From the NCBI GenBank assembly GCA_023261645.1, contig JAHFOO010000004.1:4486-68485 (forward strand): DNA of 64,000 nucleotides. Reading direction: 5' to 3'. How positions within the stretch are numbered: the first letter of the stretch is position 1; each line of letters begins with the position of its first letter. This document shows positions 2,269 through 57,567 of the stretch, one piece after another. The notes below the pieces were generated by a model. That model did no database searches and was not told where the DNA came from. It was given only the letters and a program-made list of their open reading frames with translations. Position numbers and translations under genes: made by a program. This DNA is from Candidatus Moraniibacteriota bacterium (lineage in GTDB: Bacteria; Patescibacteriota; Minisyncoccia; Moranbacterales; UBA1568).

Positions 2269-3256
2269 GGATAGTACGAATTGAGAAAGTGCTTCGGAGT
2301 ACTTTTTTCTTTTCCAGGGTGTTTTTTTATTGTCTAGAGAAGTGAGTGAAGAGAAAATTTATTTTCACTTCCGAACGATTGACGACATCAAGGAGTCCTA
2401 CTCCTTATTACCGATAATATTGTCAAAGAGTACCAAAGAAATTCTGAAGAAATGTTTGTTACTCTTTTCTTTTTTGTGAAAAGAGCGATACACATTTCCG
2501 CAGAAGTGCCTTAACAATTTATGTCTTTTTCAAAGGGGTCACCGATTGCCTGGCAGCGGAAAGCAATCCGATTTTTTTGAGATAGTCTAAATAATGTATG
2601 TATACCTGCGCACTTTTTATCCAAAGTGCAAGGTAGAAAAGGTCAAGCAAATTCAACGTAGAAAAAACAGTGCGTCGAATGCGCAAACATTCTTCACTGT
2701 TAACCGATTGTCCGTGAGAATTTTCTCTTCTGAGAGAATTTTTGCGGACAAGAGAAAAAAGAAGGTTACTTAACGCATGGTGTGGATGCCTTGACTGAAG
2801 CAAGCGATGAAGGACGTAGGAGGCTGCGATAAGCCTCGGGGAGCTGTCAACCAAGCTTTGATCCGGGGATTTCCGAATGGGGCAACCCTTCCACTTTTTA
2901 GTGGAAAACCGTATCTGAATTCATAGGATACGGTAGCGCACCCTGGGAATTGAAACATCTTAGTACCAGGAGGAAAAGAAATTAATAAAGATTCCGTAAG
3001 TAGTGGCGAGCGAACGCGGAATAGCCTAAACCACCGAGCTTGCTCGTGTGGGGTTGCAGGGCTTGTAGACTCGATTGATCGGGGTCGTCGTATTTCTGTT
3101 AGCAAAATGTTCTGGAAAGAACAACCAAAGAGGGTAATAGTCCCGTATGTGAAAACGAGAATACCACGATGTACAAGTACCTAAGTAGGGCGGGGCCGGA
3201 GAAACCCCGTTTGAATCTGGGAGCACTAACTTCCAAGGCTAAATATTGCTTCAGAT

Positions 3257-3293
<37 letters not shown>

Positions 3294-4721
3294 CATCCCG
3301 ATAAGGGAGATGAAATAGAACTGAAACTCCATGCTAACGAAGAGTCGGAGCCTTGTTCAATCAGGGTGACGGCGTGCTTTTTGCAGCACGATCCAACGAG
3401 TTAATTTTACGCGGCTGTCTAAGGGATGATGAGTTCCGGAGACATAGTGAAAGCGAGCCTGAATAGGGCGAAATAAGAGTCGCGTGGATTAGACCCGAAG
3501 CCAGACGAGCTACATATGAGCAGGGTGAAGCGTGGGTAAAACCACGTGGAGGCCCGCACCCACTTGCTGTGCAACTCAAGGGGATGACTTGTGTGTAGGG
3601 GAGAAATTCCAATCGAGTTTGGCAATAGCTGGTTCTCTCTGAAATAGCTTGAGGGCTAGCGTCTTGTAAATTGTACCCGAGGGGTAGAGCTACTGGATGA
3701 GAATTCGCGGCTTGCCGTAGGATTTTCAACCAAACTCCGAATACTCGCGGTATTTACCAAGGCAGTCAGTACTCCGGGGCTAAGCTCGGAGCACAAAAGG
3801 GAAAAAGCCCAGATCGTCAGCTAAGGTCCCAAAATCTGTATTAAGTGGGAAAGGAAGTGAAAACTCTTAGACACTTAGGAGGTTGGCTTAGAAGCAGCAA
3901 TCCTTTAAAGAGTGCGTAATAGCTCACTAATCTAGAGTTTTCGCGCCGACAATGTAACGGGGCTAAAATACAGTACCGAAGCTACGGACTGTATCGCAAG
4001 ATACAGTGGTAAGAGAGCGTTCCGTATGCGCTGAAGCAGAAGGGTGACCGACTGTGGAGCGTACGGAAGTGAGAATGTTGGAATGAGTAACCGCAATGAG
4101 GGTGAGAGCCCCTCACATCGAAAGTCTGAGGTTTCCTGGGCCATGGTGATCATCCCAGGGTTAGTCGGTCCTAAGGCCAGGCTGAAAAGCGTAGTCGATG
4201 GACATCAGGTTAATATTCCTGAACTATTTGTATATTCGAGGGAGAGACGCATCTCTGTACCTCTTGCCCCTTATTGGATTGGGGTTTGGTCTTCGAGGAC
4301 GTCGTACAGGCAAATCCGTACGGCACTAGTCCAATGGAGATTGACGAAGTTTCACCACGGTGAGATGAAGGAGAGGGAGCGGGGTGCCAGGAAAATCTTC
4401 TAAGGTTCGTATACAAATATCCGTACCGCAAACCGACACAGGTAGACTGGGCGAGTAGCCTAAGATGAACGGGAGAGAATTCGTTAAGGAACTCGGCAAA
4501 AAAGCTAGACGTAAGTTCGCAATATGTCTTGCCAACCGCTGAGGTTGGCCGCAGCAAAAGTTTTCCAAGCAACTGTTTATCAAAAACACAAGTCTCTGCA
4601 AACCCGCAAGGGGAAGTATAGGGGCTGACACCTGACCAGTGCTGGAACGTTAACGGGAGCGGTGCAAGCCAATCCCCGAAGCGCCAGTGAACGTCGGCGA
4701 TAACTATAATCGTCCTAAGGT

Positions 4722-4979
4722 TTCGAAACGCTCGCAAGAGAGTTTCGAAAGGACTGGGACGATTGTAGGAAGTGTGATAAATAGAAAAGAAGAGCTGCTT
4801 CGTTCTGTAGTAATATAGAACAGGTCCTAAAAAAATACATGGCCATATGCTGGAAATCTGCTTTGCAGACAATCAGCAGGAAAGATCCTACTTGGTAGGA
4901 AATCCTCAGAGACTATATGCCATGCTCCTATAATAAAATATAGGATGAAGATAGAGTCCTTCGCCGAAAAGGAGCGAAA
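4722..4979 (+). mobile_element. ORF-less insertion (putative group I intron) in 23S between CCUAAGGU and AGCGAAAUUCC (E. coli ~1931 region)
   Basis: ~258 nt with no counterpart in the conserved 23S core; upstream exon ends in U as expected for a group I 5' splice site. Confidence 0.5.
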
Positions 4980-5020
4980 AGCGAAATTCCTTGTCAGGTA
5001 AATTGTCAGAATTGCCTGAA

Positions 5021-5740
5021 TATCGTGGTAACATGATATAAGTAACCCGGCTTATAACGGTGGAGCCTAACACTTGTTGAAACAAGTTATGGTAATACCG
5101 TGGGAAGTCCCCTGAGAGACATTCGAAGGGTGACCCCGTAACGACTGATGCGAAAGCAGAGGCCCCCGCCTATTGCGCGGAGGCAACACGCCGGCTCTTA
5201 TCTAACCCAAAAGAAACATATGGATTTTGCCTCTTACATTTCCGGTTTTGTAGATGGTGAAGGATGCTTTAGTGTATCTTTTACTCTTCGTGCAAAACTG
5301 AAGACAGGAATAGAGGTTCGACCGAGTTTTTCGATCGGACAGAATAAGCGCAGTCTGAAGCTGTTACAAGAAATAGAACAGTTTTTCCGATGCGGGAGTA
5401 TACGCTTTTCGTCACGTGATAATTGCTATAAGTATGAAACACGCGATATAAGCGAGCTCATGCGGAAAATTATTCCGCATTTCGAAAAATTCCCTCTTCA
5501 GTCAGATAAAGCGAGAGATTTCAAAATTTTTCGTGATATATGCAAAGAGATATCTACTGCAAAACATCTCAATCCAGAGCATTTGAGACAGATTATTCAT
5601 CTGGCTTATCAAATGAATGGGTCGGGAAAGAGGAAATATCCGGAAGCAGAACTCCTACGTGTTCTGGATAAGATGAAGATATAGTCTAATGAAGCGTGAA
5701 AACGTGAGATAATATAAATGAAGTTCTGACGCGCATGAAA
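5021..5740 (+). mobile_element. group I-type intron in 23S (E. coli ~1951 region, CACGAAU|GGCGUAAUGA) carrying a LAGLIDADG homing endonuclease ORF
   Basis: ~720-nt insertion; flanking exon sequence restores ...CCTGAAT|GGTGTAATGA matching the conserved 23S; boundaries +/-5 nt. Confidence 0.6.
5220..5684 (+). CDS. single-motif LAGLIDADG homing endonuclease encoded inside the 23S intron
   Basis: MDFASYISGFVDGEGCF... LAGLIDADG-type motif, basic C-terminal region; ORF lies wholly inside the rRNA insertion. Confidence 0.8.
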   Translation: MDFASYISGFVDGEGCFSVSFTLRAKLKTGIEVRPSFSIGQNKRSLKLLQEIEQFFRCGSIRFSSRDNCYKYETRDISELMRKIIPHFEKFPLQSDKARDFKIFRDICKEISTAKHLNPEHLRQIIHLAYQMNGSGKRKYPEAELLRVLDKMKI

Positions 5741-6005
5741 GGTGTAATGACTTGGAAACTGTCTCAACGAACATCCCGGTGAAATTGCAATGACGGTAAA
5801 GATGCCGTCGACCTACAGCTAGACGAAAAGACCCCATGGAGCTTTACTATAACTTGGTATTGACTTAAAGTTTTTGCTGCCGAGCATAGGTGGGAGACTA
5901 TGAAGCACCCCTTCTGGGGGGTGTGGAGTCATCACTGGAATACCACTCTGCAGAGATTTTAATTCTAACCCACGGCCGTAATCCGGTCGGGGGACAGTGC
6001 CTGGT

Positions 6006-6037
<32 letters not shown>

Positions 6038-6259
6038 GTGCAACGGAGGCGTTTACAAAGGTTCTCTAGGTCCGGATGGAAATCGGACCGATAGCGCAAA
6101 AGCATAAGAGAGCTTTACTGAAAGACCGATCAGTCGATCAGTTACGAAAGTAGAATTTAGTGAACCGACCATTACTCGTAGGAGTGTGGAAGATCATCAG
6201 ATAAAAGTTACCCTGGGGATAACAGGCTGATCTTGCCCAAGAGTCCATATCGACGGCAA

Positions 6260-6297
<38 letters not shown>

Positions 6298-6507
6298 GTG
6301 GAGAAGCTCCCAAGGGTTTGGCTGTTCGCCAATTAAAGTGGTACGTGAGCTGGGTTCAAACCGTCGTGAGACAGGTTGGTTTCCTATCTGCTGTAGGCGT
6401 GTGTTGCTTGAGAGAACTCTTTCCTAGTACGAGAGGACCGGAAAGAACGAACCTCTGGTGTATCTGCTGTTCCGCCAGGAGCATCGCAGAGTAGCTACGT
6501 TCGGGTA

Positions 6508-6540
<33 letters not shown>

Positions 6541-6849
6541 AAGCTCAAGATAAGGCAACAGTATCAGTTTACTGATACAAGATTTCCTAGAAGATTACTA
6601 GGTTGATAGGCTGCAGATGTAAGTCCCGAGAGGGATTCAGTCAAGCAGTACTAATAAATTTATTCAACTTTCTTTTTTCTAATCTTGTTTTATTCTCGCA
6701 AGAGAGTAAAGTGAGTTACGGTTAGCAGTGAAGAGTGCTTGAAAATGGGGACACAACAACATTATAAATTAGACGACAATTTGGAGGCCCGCCTGCAACG
6801 CTATGCGTAGCATTGCGGGCAGGGGAATCCAATACATTTTTGAGAGCAG

Positions 6850-8319: not shown

Positions 8320-9438
8320 GTGTTTCGATTTTTTTTCAAATTTGATTCCGTATTGGTTGCGGTGACACTGCTTCTTCTGGGAGTGAGTCTGCTTACTCTG
8401 TACAGTTTGTCGGTCGCTTCAGGAACGGATTATTTTCTGAAACAGACTATTTTTGCTACGCTCGGTCTGATGAGTATGTTTTTGGTGGGTTTCTTGGATT
8501 ATCGACATATACAGAAATATAGTACAGCACTTTACTTTTTGACGATTTTTATCCTTTCTCTTGTGCTCATATTTGGTACGACGGTTCGTGGTACGGCAGG
8601 CTGGCTTTCTTTCGGTATATTTCAGATACAGCCGGTCGAGATTGCAAAAGTGACATTGGTCATATTCTTGGCCAGTTTCATTTCCAAGAAAAAATCAGAA
8701 TTGGGTGAATGGACCCGGGTTATCGCATCACTTGTCCTCTCTGCTGTACTTATTTTTTTGGTTTTGAAACAGCCGGATTTGGGCTCGAGCTTGGTACTCG
8801 TCGCTATCTGGATCGGGATGATTCTGGCTTCCGGTTTACGGATGAAACATCTTCTTGTCTTGTCTCTCCTCGGCGCGACGCTTCTTTTCGGGAGCTGGTT
8901 TACGCTGGAGGGGTATCAGAAAGATCGTATCAATACATTCATTCATCCGGAATCTGATCCGCGTGGCAGTGGTTACAATGTCCTTCAGGCAATCGTGGCT
9001 GTGGGTTCTGGCGGGGTCTCTGGGAAGGGTATCGGGCATGGGTCGCAGTCACAGCTCAATTTTCTTCCTGAAAAGCACACAGATTTTATCTTTGCTGTTA
9101 TTGCCGAAGAACTCGGCCTTGTAGGAGCGTTCTTCGTGATAGGTCTGTATCTCATTCTCTTGTATCGTGTCAAACGGATCGGTGATACAGCGAGCGACAA
9201 CTTTGGATATTTGGTAGCTGTTGGGATAGTGGTGATGCTGTTTTCTCAAATCGTCATCAATATCGGAATGAATATCGGGCTACTTCCGGTGACAGGACTG
9301 CCGGCCCCGCTCCTCAGTTATGGAGGGAGTTCTCTCCTTTCCACACTCTTTTCCATCGGACTTCTTTTGAATATATATCACAGGAAAAAAGGCAACGAAG
9401 ATTTCCGTATTTCTCTCGAAAAAGAGACTATTGACTAA
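8320..9438 (+). CDS. ftsW: SEDS-family cell-wall polymerase FtsW/RodA
   Basis: 10-TM architecture, conserved FtsW/RodA C-terminal region (LPVTGLPAPLLSYGGSSLL). Confidence 0.85.
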   Translation: MFRFFFKFDSVLVAVTLLLLGVSLLTLYSLSVASGTDYFLKQTIFATLGLMSMFLVGFLDYRHIQKYSTALYFLTIFILSLVLIFGTTVRGTAGWLSFGIFQIQPVEIAKVTLVIFLASFISKKKSELGEWTRVIASLVLSAVLIFLVLKQPDLGSSLVLVAIWIGMILASGLRMKHLLVLSLLGATLLFGSWFTLEGYQKDRINTFIHPESDPRGSGYNVLQAIVAVGSGGVSGKGIGHGSQSQLNFLPEKHTDFIFAVIAEELGLVGAFFVIGLYLILLYRVKRIGDTASDNFGYLVAVGIVVMLFSQIVINIGMNIGLLPVTGLPAPLLSYGGSSLLSTLFSIGLLLNIYHRKKGNEDFRISLEKETID

Positions 9439-13893: not shown

Positions 13894-14088
13894 ACAAAGC
13901 ATATATCCGTATCATTATTGACAGAGGCTAAAAGGTGTGCTAAAATAAGTAATCGAGAAACTTGGGTCGATTGACTCTTGTTTTGAAAAGCCTTCTTCAT
14001 TTTTGAACAGATCTTTCCCTGTTAGAAACAAAAGGGATTCTTTTTGTAGAAGTCGATAAAAAATCCTTCGTAGTGTAAACGAAGTATG

Positions 14089-14154
14089 GCCGAGATGGCG
14101 GAATTTCTACCTGTCGGTAGACAGGCCTGCTGCCGGCAGGCAGGGGTAGACGCA
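14089..14154 (+). pseudogene. tRNA-Leu-like 5' fragment (acceptor + D arm) interrupted by palindromic repeat copies
   Basis: GCCGAGATGGCGGAATT[tctacctgtcggtagacaggcctgctgccggcaggcagg]GGTAGACGCA; bracket removed gives canonical tRNA-Leu 5' half; no anticodon or T arm follows. Confidence 0.55.
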
Positions 14155-14181
14155 TAGTAAAGAAACAAGATAGTATGTGGT

Positions 14182-14436
14182 ATGAAATGTTTTGTATATG
14201 CTTTGAAAAGTGATGTGGATGGCAGTTTGTATATAGGGATGTCATCCGATGTTTCAAAAAGATTGAAACAGCATAATAGTGGTATGACTTCCTCAAACCG
14301 TCATCGTACTCCATTTAAATTATTTTATAGTAAAGAATTTGAAACTACGGTAGAAGCAAGAAAATATGAGAAATATTTGAAATCAGGTATAGGAAGAGAG
14401 TTTTTAAAGAATTTACGAGATCAAAAGTCTCATTAA
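14182..14436 (+). CDS. small GIY-YIG nuclease-family protein (UPF0213/YhbQ-like)
   Basis: VYALKSDVDGSLYIGMSSDVSKRLKQHN ... E...ARKYEKYLK GIY-YIG catalytic-core pattern; 84 aa. Confidence 0.7.
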   Translation: MKCFVYALKSDVDGSLYIGMSSDVSKRLKQHNSGMTSSNRHRTPFKLFYSKEFETTVEARKYEKYLKSGIGREFLKNLRDQKSH

Positions 14437-14442
14437 TTGAAA

Positions 14443-14526
14443 GCCCTGGTGGCGGAATTGGTAGACGCACTAGCTTCAGGTGCTAGCGTGAGCAATCACA
14501 TGGGAGTTCGAGTCTCCCCTAGGGCA
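14443..14526 (+). tRNA. tRNA-Leu (anticodon CAG), long variable arm, no encoded CCA
   Basis: cloverleaf: acceptor gccctgg/ctagggc, anticodon loop cuuCAGgu, 16-nt variable arm, T-loop gttcgagtc. Confidence 0.9.
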
Positions 14527-14708
14527 CAACGTAATATAATTTTCCCTTGATAAAAAGAGAGGAGATTCATCTTTCGTGTAATTCATTCTTGCTCTGGATA
14601 ACAAAACACCGAGGTAAGAAAACTAATCAATCTTGCGAATATGCCTCTGCTCTGGTTTCATTATGAAACGTATGTGACGAGAGGCGGTTCGGAGAATAAG
14701 TAAACAGT

Positions 14709-34269: not shown

Positions 34270-36447
34270 TTATTTAAGTTTATGAGGATTGTGATTGGGA
34301 CAGACTTTGTTTGAACATCTTTCGGGGATAGTTTTTGTCCCTTCCATCATCAGTGATTTGCATAGCGGACAGAGATTGCCAGTCGGTTTGGCTTTGATGG
34401 CATTTTTACAGTCGGGATAGTTGGAACAGCTGTAGAAAATACCGAAGCGGCCGCGACGTTCGGTCATTTTCCCCTGCCTACCGGCAGGCAGGCCTTGCGC
34501 ACACGTAGGGCAGGTGATGTCGGTTGTCGGGAGTGCGTTCTCATCTTTTTTGATGAATTTACATTTCGGATAATTGGAACAGGCGATGAATTTCCCGAAT
34601 TTCCCGGTACGTTCCATCAGTTTCCCATCCTTGCATTTCGGACAAGCCTCGCCGGTTTCCTTCGGCGGTTCGACTACTTTGCCTTCTTCGGTCAGAGCGC
34701 CGTCACACTCCGGGAAACGTGAACAGCTGAAGAATTTGCCGTTGCGAGCCAGTTTGATAACCATTTTCGCTCCGCATTTCGGACAGACGGTACTCTCCGG
34801 AGCATCGCCCATATTGGTGACTTTTTCTATCTTGTCTTTGCTCTTCACTTCTTTGGCGAATGGCAGGTAGAAATCTTTGAGCGTTTTCTCGTATTCACGA
34901 GTGCCTGCAGCGATATCATCGAGCTTGTTCTCCATATCGGCAGTAAATGTTTCTGATACCATATTTTCGAAGTGTTTGAAGAGGAAATCATCGACGACCA
35001 TACCGGTATCCGTCACACTGAGTGCTTTGCCGACCTTTTCGACATAGCCACGGTCTTGGATGGTTTTTACGATGGATGCATAGGTGCTCGGTCTGCCGAT
35101 TCCACGCTTCTCGAGTTCTTTGACGAGGCCGGCTTCAGAATATCGTTGTGGTGGTTCGGTTTGTTTCTCTTCGGATGTGATTTTTTCCAGATCGAGCGGA
35201 TCAGAGGTGGCGACTATGGGCACTTCGACGTCGTCTCCGCGCGAAGCTTTGTCGAGAGCGAGCCATCCGTCTTTGATCAAATGTGAACCACTGACTGAAA
35301 AATTGGGGAGCGCTCGATCGGTCGTATTGGCGATAATTTTCGTACGAAGTATTTCTGCATCACTCATCTGTGAAGCGAGTGTTCTCGTACGGATAAGCGT
35401 ATAGAGCTTCTTTTCGTCTTCGGTTGCGCCGGCGGTTTTCTTGGATGCATCCGTAGGCCGGATGGCTTCGTGGGCTTCCTGGGCATTTTTACTCTTGGTC
35501 TTGTAGTGACGGACAGAGAGATATTTTTCACCGAATTCTTTTTTCACGACAGCGATGATTTCCGGCAGGGCAGTTTCGGAAAGAGAGATACTGTCTGTGC
35601 GCATATAAGTGATGAACCCATTTTCGTACAATTTCTGAGCTGCACGCATCGTACGGGAGGGGGACATCCCGAGCCGTGAACTGCCTGCCTGTTGAAGTGT
35701 CGATGTCGTGAACGGCGCATACGGACGACGGAGAGCCTCCGTTGTCTTCACTTCAACTATTTCCCATTGTTTTTTCTTAGCAAGATCAAGAATATTTTCT
35801 GTGGTTTTTTTGTCTTTCGGTTGTTCGGTACAAGTGAAAACTATCTTTTCTTTCTTTTCCGTTATGCATTCTGCCGTAATGACGAAATATGCTTCAGGAA
35901 TGAAGCTTTTGATTTCTTTTTCTCGGAGGGCGAGGATGTGGAGCGCTGGAGATTGTACCCGTCCGGCAGAGAGACCATAACGAACTTTTTTCCAGATGAG
36001 TCCGGAGAGATCGTATCCGACCAATCGGTCGAGGACACGTCTTGCTTCTTGGGCTTTGCGGAGATTGATATCGAGATCACCTGGATGAGCGACGGCTTCT
36101 TTGACGGCTTTCTCGGTGATTTCGTAGAAAAGGACACGCTTGGGTTTCTTGATACCACAGGTCTCAGCCACATGCCAAGCGATAGCCTCACCTTCGCGGT
36201 CAGGGTCGCTTGCAAGGAGGACAGTGTCGCTTTTTTTGACGAGTGATTTGATATCTCTGACGACGGATTCTTTACCGGGAGAAATGATATAGCGTGGAAT
36301 GAAACCACCCTCGATGTCGATAGCATCTTTGTTCGATTTTGGGAGGTCGCGGACGTGGCCGACAGAGGCGACGACTTTGTACTCGCCACCGAGATACTTC
36401 TCGATGGTTTTGGCTTTGGATGGAGATTCTACTATCAGTAACTTCAT
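34270..36447 (-). CDS. topA: DNA topoisomerase I with C-terminal zinc-ribbon repeats
   Basis: TOPRIM (MKLLIVESPSKAKTI), active-site Tyr region, four C4 zinc ribbons. Confidence 0.92.
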   Translation of the reverse strand: MKLLIVESPSKAKTIEKYLGGEYKVVASVGHVRDLPKSNKDAIDIEGGFIPRYIISPGKESVVRDIKSLVKKSDTVLLASDPDREGEAIAWHVAETCGIKKPKRVLFYEITEKAVKEAVAHPGDLDINLRKAQEARRVLDRLVGYDLSGLIWKKVRYGLSAGRVQSPALHILALREKEIKSFIPEAYFVITAECITEKKEKIVFTCTEQPKDKKTTENILDLAKKKQWEIVEVKTTEALRRPYAPFTTSTLQQAGSSRLGMSPSRTMRAAQKLYENGFITYMRTDSISLSETALPEIIAVVKKEFGEKYLSVRHYKTKSKNAQEAHEAIRPTDASKKTAGATEDEKKLYTLIRTRTLASQMSDAEILRTKIIANTTDRALPNFSVSGSHLIKDGWLALDKASRGDDVEVPIVATSDPLDLEKITSEEKQTEPPQRYSEAGLVKELEKRGIGRPSTYASIVKTIQDRGYVEKVGKALSVTDTGMVVDDFLFKHFENMVSETFTADMENKLDDIAAGTREYEKTLKDFYLPFAKEVKSKDKIEKVTNMGDAPESTVCPKCGAKMVIKLARNGKFFSCSRFPECDGALTEEGKVVEPPKETGEACPKCKDGKLMERTGKFGKFIACSNYPKCKFIKKDENALPTTDITCPTCAQGLPAGRQGKMTERRGRFGIFYSCSNYPDCKNAIKAKPTGNLCPLCKSLMMEGTKTIPERCSNKVCPNHNPHKLK
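34473..34492. repeat. 20-nt perfect-family palindrome CCTGCCTACCGGCAGGCAGG embedded in-frame in the topA zinc-ribbon coding region
   Basis: minus-strand translation ...CPTCAQGLPAGRQGKMTERRG; the repeat encodes LPAGRQG. Confidence 0.8.
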
Positions 36448-38023: not shown

Positions 38024-38095
38024 TTCTTTTGTAAAAACAAAAAAGCACACTTGGGCCTTTTTTGATACTTCGCTACCGCTTGCTTTAGGGCGGTG

Positions 38096-38115
38096 CCTGC
38101 CTGTCGGCAGACAGG
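38096..38115. repeat. palindromic repeat copy (short form) between tRNA genes
   Basis: CCTGCCTGTCGGCAGACAGG. Confidence 0.75.
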
Positions 38116-38221
38116 GATTCGTCCGGGGAGCCTGGGATTTTTCTTTTCAGAAAAAAATCCCTTCTCATCCACTCGTAAGTGAAGCAGTTCACTTACTCCC
38201 TCCTCTCTTCGCTATCGCTTG

Positions 38222-49468: not shown

Positions 49469-50011
49469 ATGATGGGAAAGAGGACCCGTGAAAAAAAATT
49501 CTTTTTACTCTATGAGAGTCAGGCAGACGCTCTTTTTCGTTTTGTTTTCTTTCGGGTGAGCGATCGTGAGGGAGCCAAAGACATCGTTCAAGATACTTTT
49601 CTCAAGATGTGGGAGGTGCTCGATTCGAGTCGGAAAATAGAGAATGAGAGAGCTTTCCTTTTCCGCATCGCCTCCAATCTGGTCATCGATCGGTATAGGA
49701 AATCGAAAGAATACTCTTTGAACAGTCTCACTGAACAGGGTTTCGATGTCCCAGATGATCCAGGCACACCGATCGAAACACAGATCGATGCCGATACGAC
49801 GCTTGAGTTCCTGCAGGATATTCCGGAAAAATATCGTGAAGCGGTATGGCTTCGTATGGTGGAAGAATGGTCTGTGAGAGACATTGCTGAGCTTTCGAAT
49901 GAGTCTGAGAATGTCATATCGGTACGTATTCATCGCGGACTCAAGTTGTGGCGGAAGCGAGTGAGTGAGGAATTTGGTAAGAAATCACGTCCTGAAACGT
50001 CAGAAGAATGA
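49469..50011 (+). CDS. ECF-type RNA polymerase sigma factor (sigma-70 regions 2 and 4)
   Basis: region 2 (ALFRFVFFRVSDREGAKDIVQDTFLKMW) and region 4 HTH (WSVRDIAELSNESENVISVRIHRG). Confidence 0.8.
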   Translation: MMGKRTREKKFFLLYESQADALFRFVFFRVSDREGAKDIVQDTFLKMWEVLDSSRKIENERAFLFRIASNLVIDRYRKSKEYSLNSLTEQGFDVPDDPGTPIETQIDADTTLEFLQDIPEKYREAVWLRMVEEWSVRDIAELSNESENVISVRIHRGLKLWRKRVSEEFGKKSRPETSEE

Positions 50012-50053
50012 AAGAGAGCCAGTTCAAAATCTGATGTCGAGAGAAAAGTTTCT

Positions 50054-50073
50054 GATTTCGAGACCTGCCTGCC
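50054..50073. repeat. perfect 20-nt palindrome CCTGCCTGCCGGCAGGCAGG (short-form repeat) after sigma-factor gene
   Basis: exact palindrome centred on CCGG. Confidence 0.8.
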
Positions 50074-50231
50074 GGCAGGCAGGTGAAAATTATGCAGAGT
50101 GCGAAGGCCTATCGCGTGATAAGCCGACAATCGATAAGTAATTTTCAGCCGAAATCAGGTACTTTTATACGACAAGTAGTATTTATTTTTTTAGCCTATA
50201 CATTCAGATTTTTAACTGGCTCTAGAACGTT

Positions 50232-56672: not shown

Positions 56673-56927
56673 ATGTACTATGTATATGTGTTGTTCAGTA
56701 AAAAAGATAGCAAAAGATATATAGGGTATATTAATAATTTAAAATTAAGATTTGAGCACCATCAGAAAGGAAAGGTGGAATCTACAAAAAATAGGCGACC
56801 ACTAAGTCTTATTTACTACGAAGCATGTCTGAACCAACAGGATGCTACCTATCGGGAAAAGTATCTAAAGACTTATCATGGGAGTATGTTTATAAAAAAG
56901 AGGCTCAAATCTTATTTAACGGGGTAA
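56673..56927 (+). CDS. small GIY-YIG nuclease-family protein (paralog of 14182 gene)
   Basis: YVYVLFSKKDSKRYIGYINNLKLRFEHH...REKYLK; 84 aa. Confidence 0.7.
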   Translation: MYYVYVLFSKKDSKRYIGYINNLKLRFEHHQKGKVESTKNRRPLSLIYYEACLNQQDATYREKYLKTYHGSMFIKKRLKSYLTG

Positions 56928-56931
56928 ACAT

Positions 56932-57333
56932 ATGAAAAAGGGATACTATGGCAATATTGAAAAATTGACGCTCGCGAATGAGAATTTTCGCCAGGTTCTG
57001 TATACTGCCGAACATTGTCAGCTGGTACTGATGTCACTTTTGCCAGGTGAAGAAATCGGTCTTGAGACGCACACTGGAAATGATCAGTTCTTACGTTTTG
57101 AAAAAGGGGAGGGAAAAGTCATCATTGATGAGACAGAATATGTCGTCGGAGACGGTGACAGTGTCATCGTTCCTTCCGGGGCACGGCACAATGTCGTGAA
57201 TACCAGCGCAACAGAATCACTCAAACTCTATACGATCTATGCTCCTGCACATCACCAGGATGGGATGGTGCGTGCGACCCGCGCTCTCGCCGTAGCCGAT
57301 GACCCCGAGTTTGATGGCAAAACGACAGAATAA
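56932..57333 (+). CDS. cupin-domain protein
   Basis: cupin motifs G(X)5HXH-like ... GDSVIVPSGARHNV. Confidence 0.7.
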   Translation: MKKGYYGNIEKLTLANENFRQVLYTAEHCQLVLMSLLPGEEIGLETHTGNDQFLRFEKGEGKVIIDETEYVVGDGDSVIVPSGARHNVVNTSATESLKLYTIYAPAHHQDGMVRATRALAVADDPEFDGKTTE

Positions 57334-57426
57334 TGATATCATAGAAAAGAGAGAGGATAGCTGAATCGGTTTTTCGTCTCTCTACAATATAACGGGTATT
57401 CCCCGATCTTACCGGCACTGCGTTCG

Positions 57427-57520
57427 CCTGCCTGCCGGTAGGCAGGAAAACGAGAGTAAACTTTCGTTTCACTCACTTCCCTGTCTGCCGATTTATCTGC
57501 CGTAGGCACGACAGGCAGGG
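57427..57520. repeat. compound locus of palindromic repeats: short form CCTGCCTGCCGGTAGGCAGG plus inverted long form, separated by a hairpin
   Basis: 57427-57446 short form; 57480-57520 reverse-complement of long form seen at 9521 and 42183. Confidence 0.8.
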
Positions 57521-57567
57521 TTTGGTAATAAAAATTCATTGAGAGGGATATTTTGGTTTGAATACAT

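Follow-up and report, generated by a model that had tools for sequence, protein, structure and literature searches.

Cases of selfish palindromes invading essential genes in frame come mainly from the Rickettsia palindromic elements (RPEs; Ogata et al. 2000), which are described as selfish repeats of ~100-150 bp lying in frame in unrelated, often essential genes and found in Rickettsia only (PMC10969869). Here we describe a 20-nt palindromic element, which we call PAL, inside topA, the gene for DNA topoisomerase I, on a 64,000-nt stretch of contig JAHFOO010000004.1 from a Candidatus Moraniibacteriota bacterium (hereafter the window, meaning the whole stretch of DNA that was analysed). We consider it likely that this hairpin-forming mobile repeat inserted into the third zinc ribbon of TopA, that a single extra base restored the reading frame, and that the repeat is translated as LPAGRQ within a net 7-residue loop. 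Like the RPEs, PAL would be a palindrome translated in an essential gene as a fold-compatible extra surface segment, and it too occurs in non-coding DNA and RNA genes. RPE lengths are frame-compatible and supply a conserved peptide module, whereas PAL has 20 nt, breaks the frame and needs a second, compensating mutation; and RPEs are confined to Rickettsia in that account, whereas PAL is identical across many phyla and viral contigs. PAL is thus analogous to the RPEs in behaviour and is not a member of them.

The initial annotation had called the repeat REP-like. Repetitive extragenic palindromic (REP) sequences are genus- or species-specific, are organised into inverted doublets (REPINs), border a RAYT gene and mostly carry a GTAG/CGTC end tag (PMC3116915; PMC3733652). 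The likeness holds for size and palindromy, since PAL, like the REPs (~20-40 nt), is a short GC-rich palindrome that is mostly extragenic, multi-copy, hairpin-forming and sometimes clustered or self-inserted. It does not extend further: PAL copies are singlets and not REPIN doublets, the sole pairs in the window being a direct tandem (14106-14144) and a nested pair (57480-57519); the end tag is absent from the PAL consensus, GTAG occurring only inside the loop of the GGTA variant; and in place of lineage specificity the identical 20-mer is shared across phyla and viral contigs. With regard to miniature inverted-repeat transposable elements, PAL consists of two abutting 10-nt inverted arms in the manner of their terminal inverted repeats, but their target-site duplication was not seen for PAL.

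Closest to PAL in size and behaviour (self-nesting, tRNA association) are the small dispersed repeats (SDRs) of heterocystous cyanobacteria, reportedly described by Elhai et al. in 2008 as nested palindromic sequences of 21-27 nt that use one another, intergenic DNA and the tRNA-Leu intron as insertion sites, and said to have been proposed there as the smallest mobile elements. SDRs have different sequences and occur in only some cyanobacteria, and we know of no report that gives them in-frame coding insertions with frameshift compensation, cross-phylum identity or GIY-YIG cassettes. Fungal mitochondrial GC clusters (e.g., the optional in-frame cluster in yeast var1; see also PMC7218506) are GC-rich palindromic hairpins of ~30-50 bp that spread and self-insert, and the mitochondrial genomes that carry them are rich in GIY-YIG and LAGLIDADG homing endonuclease genes. 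They resemble PAL in being short GC-rich hairpins in an AT-richer genome with an in-frame coding insertion; they are organellar and differ from PAL in sequence and size, and no homology is implied. A full-text search of the available literature library found neither the PAL sequence, nor LPAGRQ, nor the combination of GIY-YIG, tRNA and candidate phyla radiation (CPR). The main additions made here are the 20+1 compensation, the three independent insertions at one nucleotide and the cross-phylum identity.

The product of the host gene has Pfam matches to Toprim, Topoisom_bac and three times to Zn_ribbon_Top1, all above curated cut-offs, i.e., the Toprim and Topoisom_bac core is followed by C4 zinc ribbons with all of their Cys ligands. 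Its best orthologs (67-91% identity) are type I DNA topoisomerases of Candidatus Moranbacteria (Patescibacteria/CPR). Homologues of these ribbons are the zinc-ribbon domains of E. coli TopA seen in 4RUL, which are modules that bind single-stranded DNA (ssDNA), and the four ligands of ribbon 3 (C646, C649, C674 and C680) were all invariant in a 50-sequence alignment. As the initial annotation had stated, a 20-mer (CCTGCCTACCGGCAGGCAGG, 34473-34492) lies within topA on the minus strand, in the only long open reading frame (ORF) covering it, and codes for an LPAGRQG stretch, the sense strand being TGT GCG CAA GGC CTG CCT GCC GGT AGG CAG GGG AAA ATG (C-AQG-LPAGRQ-G-KM). Its description as a palindrome needs some qualification: it is a member of a repeat family whose consensus (CCTGCCTGCCGGCAGGCAGG) is a perfect palindrome, but the topA copy is imperfect, with 18 of its 20 positions self-complementary. 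The insertion point lies between the two G's of a conserved Gly codon, 7 nt past the second Cys codon of CPxC, so that PAL lengthens the connection from the first zinc knuckle to the next strand with all four Cys kept. An AlphaFold2 model built on the 50-sequence alignment (mean predicted local distance difference test score, pLDDT, 83) has a low-confidence loop at residues 650-659 (block mean pLDDT ~59 over 651-660), no regular secondary structure at 653-659, and intact ribbon strands at 660-666 and 669-674; as modelled, the extra 7-residue loop is structurally tolerated and the ribbon strands are kept.

The ribbon of the 120 best orthologs follows the pattern CPxC-x-x-G-[KED]-M, and 118 of them have 3 residues between CPxC and [KED]M compared with 10 in the window TopA, which bears out the claim that the canonical knuckle is shorter; the two exceptions are P0044, which shares the insert, and a truncated fragment that does not include the site. 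The insert also proved lineage-specific on alignment, being absent from relatives of 86-91% identity and from about 170 orthologs, the closest of these at 91%. P0001 and P0002, both 91% identical to the window protein, read CPTC-GKG-KM where it reads CPTC-AQGLPAGRQG-KM, and in the nearest 90% clusters every member checked was without the insert. At the DNA level PAL was absent from the topA position in L001 (the 91% relative) and in about 50 other topA loci. Comparison of the query, TGTG[C]GCAAGG[PAL, CCTGCCTGCCGGTAGGCAGG]GGAAAATG, with L001, TGTGGCAAGGGGAAAATG, resolves the event into a clean 20-nt insertion and a separate 1-nt insertion 6-7 nt upstream of it. When this extra base is removed, the 7 nt between the Cys codon and PAL are exactly the in-frame codons of the uninserted relatives; with it, the bases between it and PAL are read in a shifted frame, so that GK becomes AQG and overall GKG becomes AQGLPAGRQG. 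PAL alone would shift the frame, because 20 is not a multiple of 3, and without the extra base the sequence runs into a TGA 13 codons after Cys649 with the loss of ~65 C-terminal residues, or half of ribbon 3 and all of ribbon 4. The earlier suggestion that about 7 residues were added without a break of frame is therefore right about the net gain in the loop next to the knuckle but wrong about the route, as the 20 nt broke the frame and the separate base restored it.

Two further TopA lineages had the same architecture. In the second (P0044, 79% identical to the query) TGC[G]CAGAAAG[perfect PAL]GTGACATG stands where the relative L005 has TGTCAGAAAGGCGACATG; this allele is present in assemblies from JGI, Logan and NCBI, and every one of the 5 distinct sequences in its 90% cluster retains AESLPAGRQG. 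In the third (L203 and L206, at 63% identity to the query, which stem from two groundwater samples taken at Hainich and differ by a synonymous change inside PAL) we saw TGCAAAAAA[A]G[PAL]GATATATG as opposed to TGCAAAAAAGG... in its relatives. PAL occupies the identical inter-nucleotide position in all three lineages, 7 nt after the Cys codon, and in each there is one extra base within the 7 nt between that codon and PAL. A contiguous 21-nt insertion, or a 1-nt duplication, was rejected as an account of these alleles, since in two lineages it calls for 4 to 6 or more substitutions beyond the insertion itself, as against one indel for a separate event. The nearest PAL-less relatives of the three carriers are at 91%, 89% and 74% amino acid identity, the other PAL-carrying TopA are more distant from the query (79% and 63%), and the flanks are lineage-specific; because each carrier is closer to PAL-less relatives and has its own flanks, these comparisons indicate that the three insertions are independent events and not the result of shared ancestry or gene conversion. 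Elsewhere in TopA, neither PAL nor a PAL-derived peptide was found among about 175 orthologs.

One way to account for such recurrence is that the Arg-containing LPAGRQ loop alters or improves ssDNA binding by ribbon 3 and has been positively selected, which is close to the exaptation into coding sequence that the initial annotation had put forward. The same site and reading frame in three independent lineages, the conservation of the insert throughout the five diverged members of the P0044 cluster, and the lack of PAL from many more variable TopA loops in those ~175 orthologs all speak for it, as does the homology of the ribbons to E. coli domains whose role in ssDNA binding is established. 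However, about 170 orthologs do well without the insert, the loop is disordered in the model, and LPAGRQ is simply PAL's only Cys-free frame, present as well in the unrelated FtsK, GatB, RfbB and ScpB. Exact PAL copies lie in long open frames of these four, of DapF and of others, nearly always in the LPAGRQ frame, and those in GatB, RfbB and FtsK fall in variable loops when compared with homologues solved in the PDB. As no gained function was seen, and as recurrence at one site is equally compatible with an insertion hot spot combined with tolerance, the claim of exaptation is not supported; adaptation seems to us unlikely, and the extra loop is better regarded as a tolerated passenger.

PAL is far from restricted to this genus or this gene. 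The exact 20-mer occurs in at least 120 DNA stretches of the GTDB species-representative genome collection and in 35 IMG/VR viral stretches, one viral contig having at least 6 copies, and the number expected by chance in 596 Gb is by simple arithmetic below 1. Among the matches listed, the hosts include many classes of Patescibacteria, Omnitrophota, Planctomycetota, uncultured Gamma- and Deltaproteobacteria, Bdellovibrionales, Thermodesulfovibrio, metagenome-assembled genomes (MAGs) of Nitrospirota type, Chloroflexi, and Bacteroidota, among them cultured isolates whose contigs are of megabase size (Winogradskyella, Flagellimonas, Longitalea and Flavivirga). The PAL-dense viral contigs L146 and L148 are high in GC and have many overlapping ORFs. 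This distribution bears on whether the topA palindrome could come from misassembly, a chimera or adapter-like sequence, with the true gene being without it. Palindromes can confuse assemblers, and the query allele is known from one assembly, a search for further assemblies of its lineage having found none. But an artefact would not bring with it a separate frame-restoring base 6 nt away, the same architecture is present in two further lineages and many independent assemblies, the 20-mer lies within long contigs of isolates (Winogradskyella, Flagellimonas, Longitalea), and natural PAL variants with compensatory changes exist. Because of the compensating base and the parallel alleles assembled many times elsewhere, we judge an assembly artefact to be very unlikely for the topA allele.

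The extra base is also informative about translation. At five loci (L042, L157, L169, L123 and L111) a tRNA 5' fragment bearing PAL is accompanied by an intact tRNA copy without it, and in these five pairs the inserted stretch measures exactly 20 nt, and no base has been duplicated or added. An empty site was also available for the window copy at 38096, the orthologous intergenic position in L161 being without PAL; the window differs there by 21 nt in total, and the extra G, which lies 4 nt from PAL, is best read as ordinary divergence. Since only coding insertions carry the extra base, it appears to be the product of selection for reading frame, and PAL would therefore be translated. The idea that it is the scar of a second nick 7 nt away was discarded, as no such base accompanies the five non-coding insertions for which an internal reference exists. 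Placed upstream of PAL, the extra base gives LPAGRQ, whereas downstream it would give CLPAGR with a new Cys near the zinc ligands, which may be why all three lineages share the upstream solution. These observations leave very little room for the proposal that PAL is cut out of the transcript in the manner of a tiny intron or processed hairpin, leaving a canonical protein: PAL does form a stable hairpin, it sits in tRNA gene loops (including that of an otherwise intact tRNA-Met in L150), and a group I intron is present in the 23S rRNA of this genome, yet excision of 20 nt would leave the extra base to break the frame in all three lineages, non-coding copies are without that base, which is best seen as a response to translation, and neither splicing machinery nor a splicing motif was identified. 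That the longer knuckle is ancestral and was lost repeatedly elsewhere, for which nothing speaks beyond its presence in three separated lineages, is scarcely credible, since the 20 nt and the 1 nt would have to have been lost precisely on dozens of occasions, the lineages with the insert each fall within groups lacking it, and the bases between the extra base and PAL match the codons of uninserted relatives exactly once that base is removed.

Our preferred reading is thus insertion followed by compensation. PAL, as a non-autonomous hairpin-forming repeat, would have landed in a Gly codon of the third zinc ribbon of topA, where insertion alone would have shifted the frame toward the TGA 13 codons past the Cys; a single-base insertion within the 7 nt between the Cys codon and PAL would then have restored it, after which PAL would be read as LPAGRQ and the ribbon would keep its four Cys and its beta strands with a net 7-residue loop. 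We infer that the insertion came first and the compensation second, and that PAL was copied by a trans-acting enzyme acting on its hairpin or cruciform form. The features on which this account rests, and related ones in the window, are listed in Table 1.

Table 1. PAL copies, the topA insertion and associated features, in window coordinates
Feature	Position	Strand	Basis or remarks
topA, type IA DNA topoisomerase I, intact ORF, 725 aa	34270..36447	minus	ORF listing and Pfam
Third C-terminal zinc ribbon, host of the insert (C646, C649 ... C674, C680)	34408..34512	minus	Alignment, AlphaFold2, 4RUL homology
20-nt palindromic element (PAL), sense CCTGCCTGCCGGTAGGCAGG, read (G)LPAGRQ(G)	34473..34492	minus	Exact match
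Compensating single-base insertion, TGTG[C]GCAAGG vs TGTGGCAAGG in relatives	34499, ambiguous within 34498-34500	minus	Comparison with L001
Two adjacent degenerate PAL copies, TCTACCTGTCGGTAGACAGG and CCTGCTGCCGGCAGGCAGG	14106..14144		D-loop of duplicated tRNA-Leu 5' fragment, 38 nt upstream of GIY-YIG ORF
PAL copy CCTGCCTGTCGGCAGACAGG, compensated T:A stem pair	38096..38115		Between two tRNA-Met genes; absent at L161 orthologous site
Perfect consensus PAL CCTGCCTGCCGGCAGGCAGG, intergenic	50064..50083		53 nt after sigma-factor-like ORF, 149 nt before next ORF
PAL, GGTA-loop subtype CCTGCCTGCCGGTAGGCAGG, intergenic	57427..57446		Identical to sense strand of topA copy
Probable nested pair, outer PAL CCTGTCTGCCG and ACAGGCAGG split after base 11 by degenerate 20-nt inner copy (57491-57510)	57480..57519		
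GIY-YIG cassette in tRNA-Leu	14088-14527		Duplicated 5' fragment (GGCCGAGATGGCGGAATT..GGTAGACGCA), two PALs in D-loop, 84-aa ORF 14182-14436, intact tRNA-Leu(CAG) 14443-14527
Second 84-aa GIY-YIG ORF (PF01541, E 2.7e-13)	56673-56927		No tRNA fragment or PAL directly upstream; PAL 500 nt downstream, past cupin-like ORF

A search of the window with up to 3 mismatches gave 4 PAL sites (34473, 38096, 50064 and 57427) compared with 0 in 100 shuffles, and about 7 copies when degenerate, tandem and nested ones are counted. By that measure this genome is rich in PAL, as related Patescibacteria contigs had 7 copies in 1.03 Mb. All copies but the one in topA lie outside long ORFs, i.e., between tRNA genes, after gene ends or in a tRNA fragment. 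The stem has undergone compensatory changes (T9:A16 at 38096 and 14110, and A8:T17 in L211), and the commonest variant replaces GGCA with GGTA in the loop; because of these two features the sequences point to a hairpin as the conserved form, in which positions 5-10 pair with 15-20 to make a 6-bp stem closed by a 4-nt loop.

Several side observations concern the window copies. The spacer between the tRNA-Met genes (38024-38220) is ~190 nt long here and in L161; L164 and L165 have ~70 nt between the two genes, and L002 and L005 next to none. The 38096 PAL lies in the additional segment, which has a T-arm-like end (CCCCGGACGAATCC) and may be a decayed tRNA. Spurious ORFs of the LPAGRQ, PACRQA or PAYRQA type are made or extended by PAL on the minus strand at 49930-50130, 57221-57539 and 13997-14314, because all three frames of a perfect palindrome are open on both strands; they will probably enter annotations as hypothetical proteins. 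The 23S rRNA gene (2759-6676) measures 3,918 nt as against a 2,925-position model, with a group I intron match at 4802-4974 and an intervening sequence of ~1 kb, a feature common in CPR bacteria.

The flanks of PAL are unrelated between loci and their composition is weakly biased, with a purine at position -1 in 71% of sites. Some contexts do recur: the centre of another PAL, which is split after base 11 in the nested PALs of L023 and L047 as at 57480 in the window; the loop of a pre-existing hairpin (L084, L072, L024, L096 and L118); short tandem-repeat arrays; and, in tRNA genes, the D-loop, the start of the anticodon loop, the variable loop and the T-loop. Among the tRNA copies, that in L237 (~4230-4290) lies in a T-loop (GGTTC, then PAL, then AATCC), D-loop copies were seen in L169 (13564), L020, L090 and L104, and the viral contigs L150 (~2240-2330) and L127 (~8570-8650) each have PAL in the variable loop of a tRNA-Met(CAT), which in L150 is otherwise complete, so that PAL would form a long extra arm, and in L127 is without part of its T-arm. 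Two further loci have unusual arrangements: in L026 (~2790-2850, from an uncultured Gammaproteobacteria MAG) a dTDP-glucose 4,6-dehydratase has PAL nested in PAL-like sequence (EDLPALPAGRQAVRQG), a double insertion that is in frame, and L159 (IMGVR_UViG_3300025106_000007) has at least 10 tandem copies of the 21-nt CCATGCCTACCGGCAGGCAGG, a PAL variant plus 1 nt, running from 3916 to 4142 at the contig end. The opposite strand of this array would encode LPAGRHG repeats, and the array may reflect amplification of an in-frame PAL unit or else an effect of assembly at the contig end.

No target-site duplication was found in nine empty-site comparisons (the five tRNA pairs, the three topA lineages with their separate extra base, and one intergenic site with a 1-nt difference nearby). 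Direct repeats of 7 nt at four loci, which might have been taken for such a duplication, sit in heptamer tandem arrays, and the related idea that 20+7=27 nt would keep the frame is inapplicable to topA. Microhomology-templated insertion was also rejected, the excess of 3-nt matches being weak (11 vs 3 expected). Nor could we make topA a hairpin-loop target, since ViennaRNA folds of six uninserted topA gave P(unpaired) from 0.00 to 0.99 with no consistent unpaired loop.

As to what might mobilise PAL, the tRNA-Leu cassette of the window has the form [tRNA 5' fragment]-[small ~80-aa GIY-YIG ORF]-[intact tRNA], and the same cassette, with PAL only in the upstream fragment, was found in L042, L111, L123, L157, L169 and L082. 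Over all DNA fetched, 8 of 17 GIY-YIG domains had PAL 17-38 nt upstream of the ORF, in most cases inside a duplicated tRNA fragment, and the intact tRNA copy never had PAL. From this arrangement PAL may be the substrate or footprint of small Slx1-like GIY-YIG nucleases, the sole candidates seen; alternatively, transcribed and dispensable tRNA fragments may merely be permissive targets. The self-nesting point CCG^G, after base 11, would fit a cut of GIY-YIG type with a 2-nt 3' overhang. A small protein that appears from its sequence to be a four-helix bundle of the '23S rRNA intervening-sequence protein' type was also seen near PAL, in L113 and four other loci. In phmmer searches with approximate IS200 TnpA and YafM query sequences there was no match at E<=10 among the six-frame ORFs of the window, no RAYT or IS200-like family recurred within 2.5 kb of 150 PAL sites, and no parent insertion sequence (IS) with CCTGCCTGCC ends was noticed in the loci, although no search was aimed at such an IS. 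Self-nesting at base 11, presence or absence between relatives, and occurrence across phyla and viruses are signatures of mobility. We tentatively suggest that PAL might represent an undescribed class of 20-nt hairpin element with a near-universal sequence, for which a structure-specific nuclease that spreads horizontally would place new copies in loops, in single-stranded regions and in the centre of PAL itself; of such nucleases the ~80-aa Slx1-like GIY-YIG proteins would be the leading suspects; topA would then be a true hot spot, and PAL an ongoing source of 7-residue LPAGRQ loops.

A number of points count against the interpretation of PAL as a mobile repeat that was inserted into topA and then compensated. 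Besides the single assembly of the window allele, the three insertions at one inter-nucleotide position coincide with no conserved predicted hairpin and no clear target motif or microhomology. Three viable or quickly rescued frameshifted intermediates of an essential gene are required, and a search for such a topA intermediate found none; the C-terminal ORFs P0121-P0130, which were considered as split or uncompensated genes, are contig-end fragments or long-read homopolymer errors. With regard to a driver, most PAL copies have no GIY-YIG gene nearby and only a minority adjoin one, and when 3,191 ORFs within 2.5 kb of PAL were clustered all-against-all, only GIY-YIG (5 loci) and the small four-helix-bundle protein (5 loci) recurred.

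PAL is an order of magnitude smaller than the RPEs and breaks the frame, yet has become fixed three times at one nucleotide of topA, and the two-step route of insertion and compensating frameshift is a clean natural example of how a protein gains a loop. In practice, the spurious LPAGRQ and PACRQA ORFs and the indels that PAL makes affect the annotation and alignment of CPR and Bacteroidota genomes. If the interpretation holds, the presence of one 20-mer in distant phyla and in viruses, together with its entry without target duplication, its self-nesting and its frequency in tRNA-gene loops, would imply a widely transferred mobilising activity.

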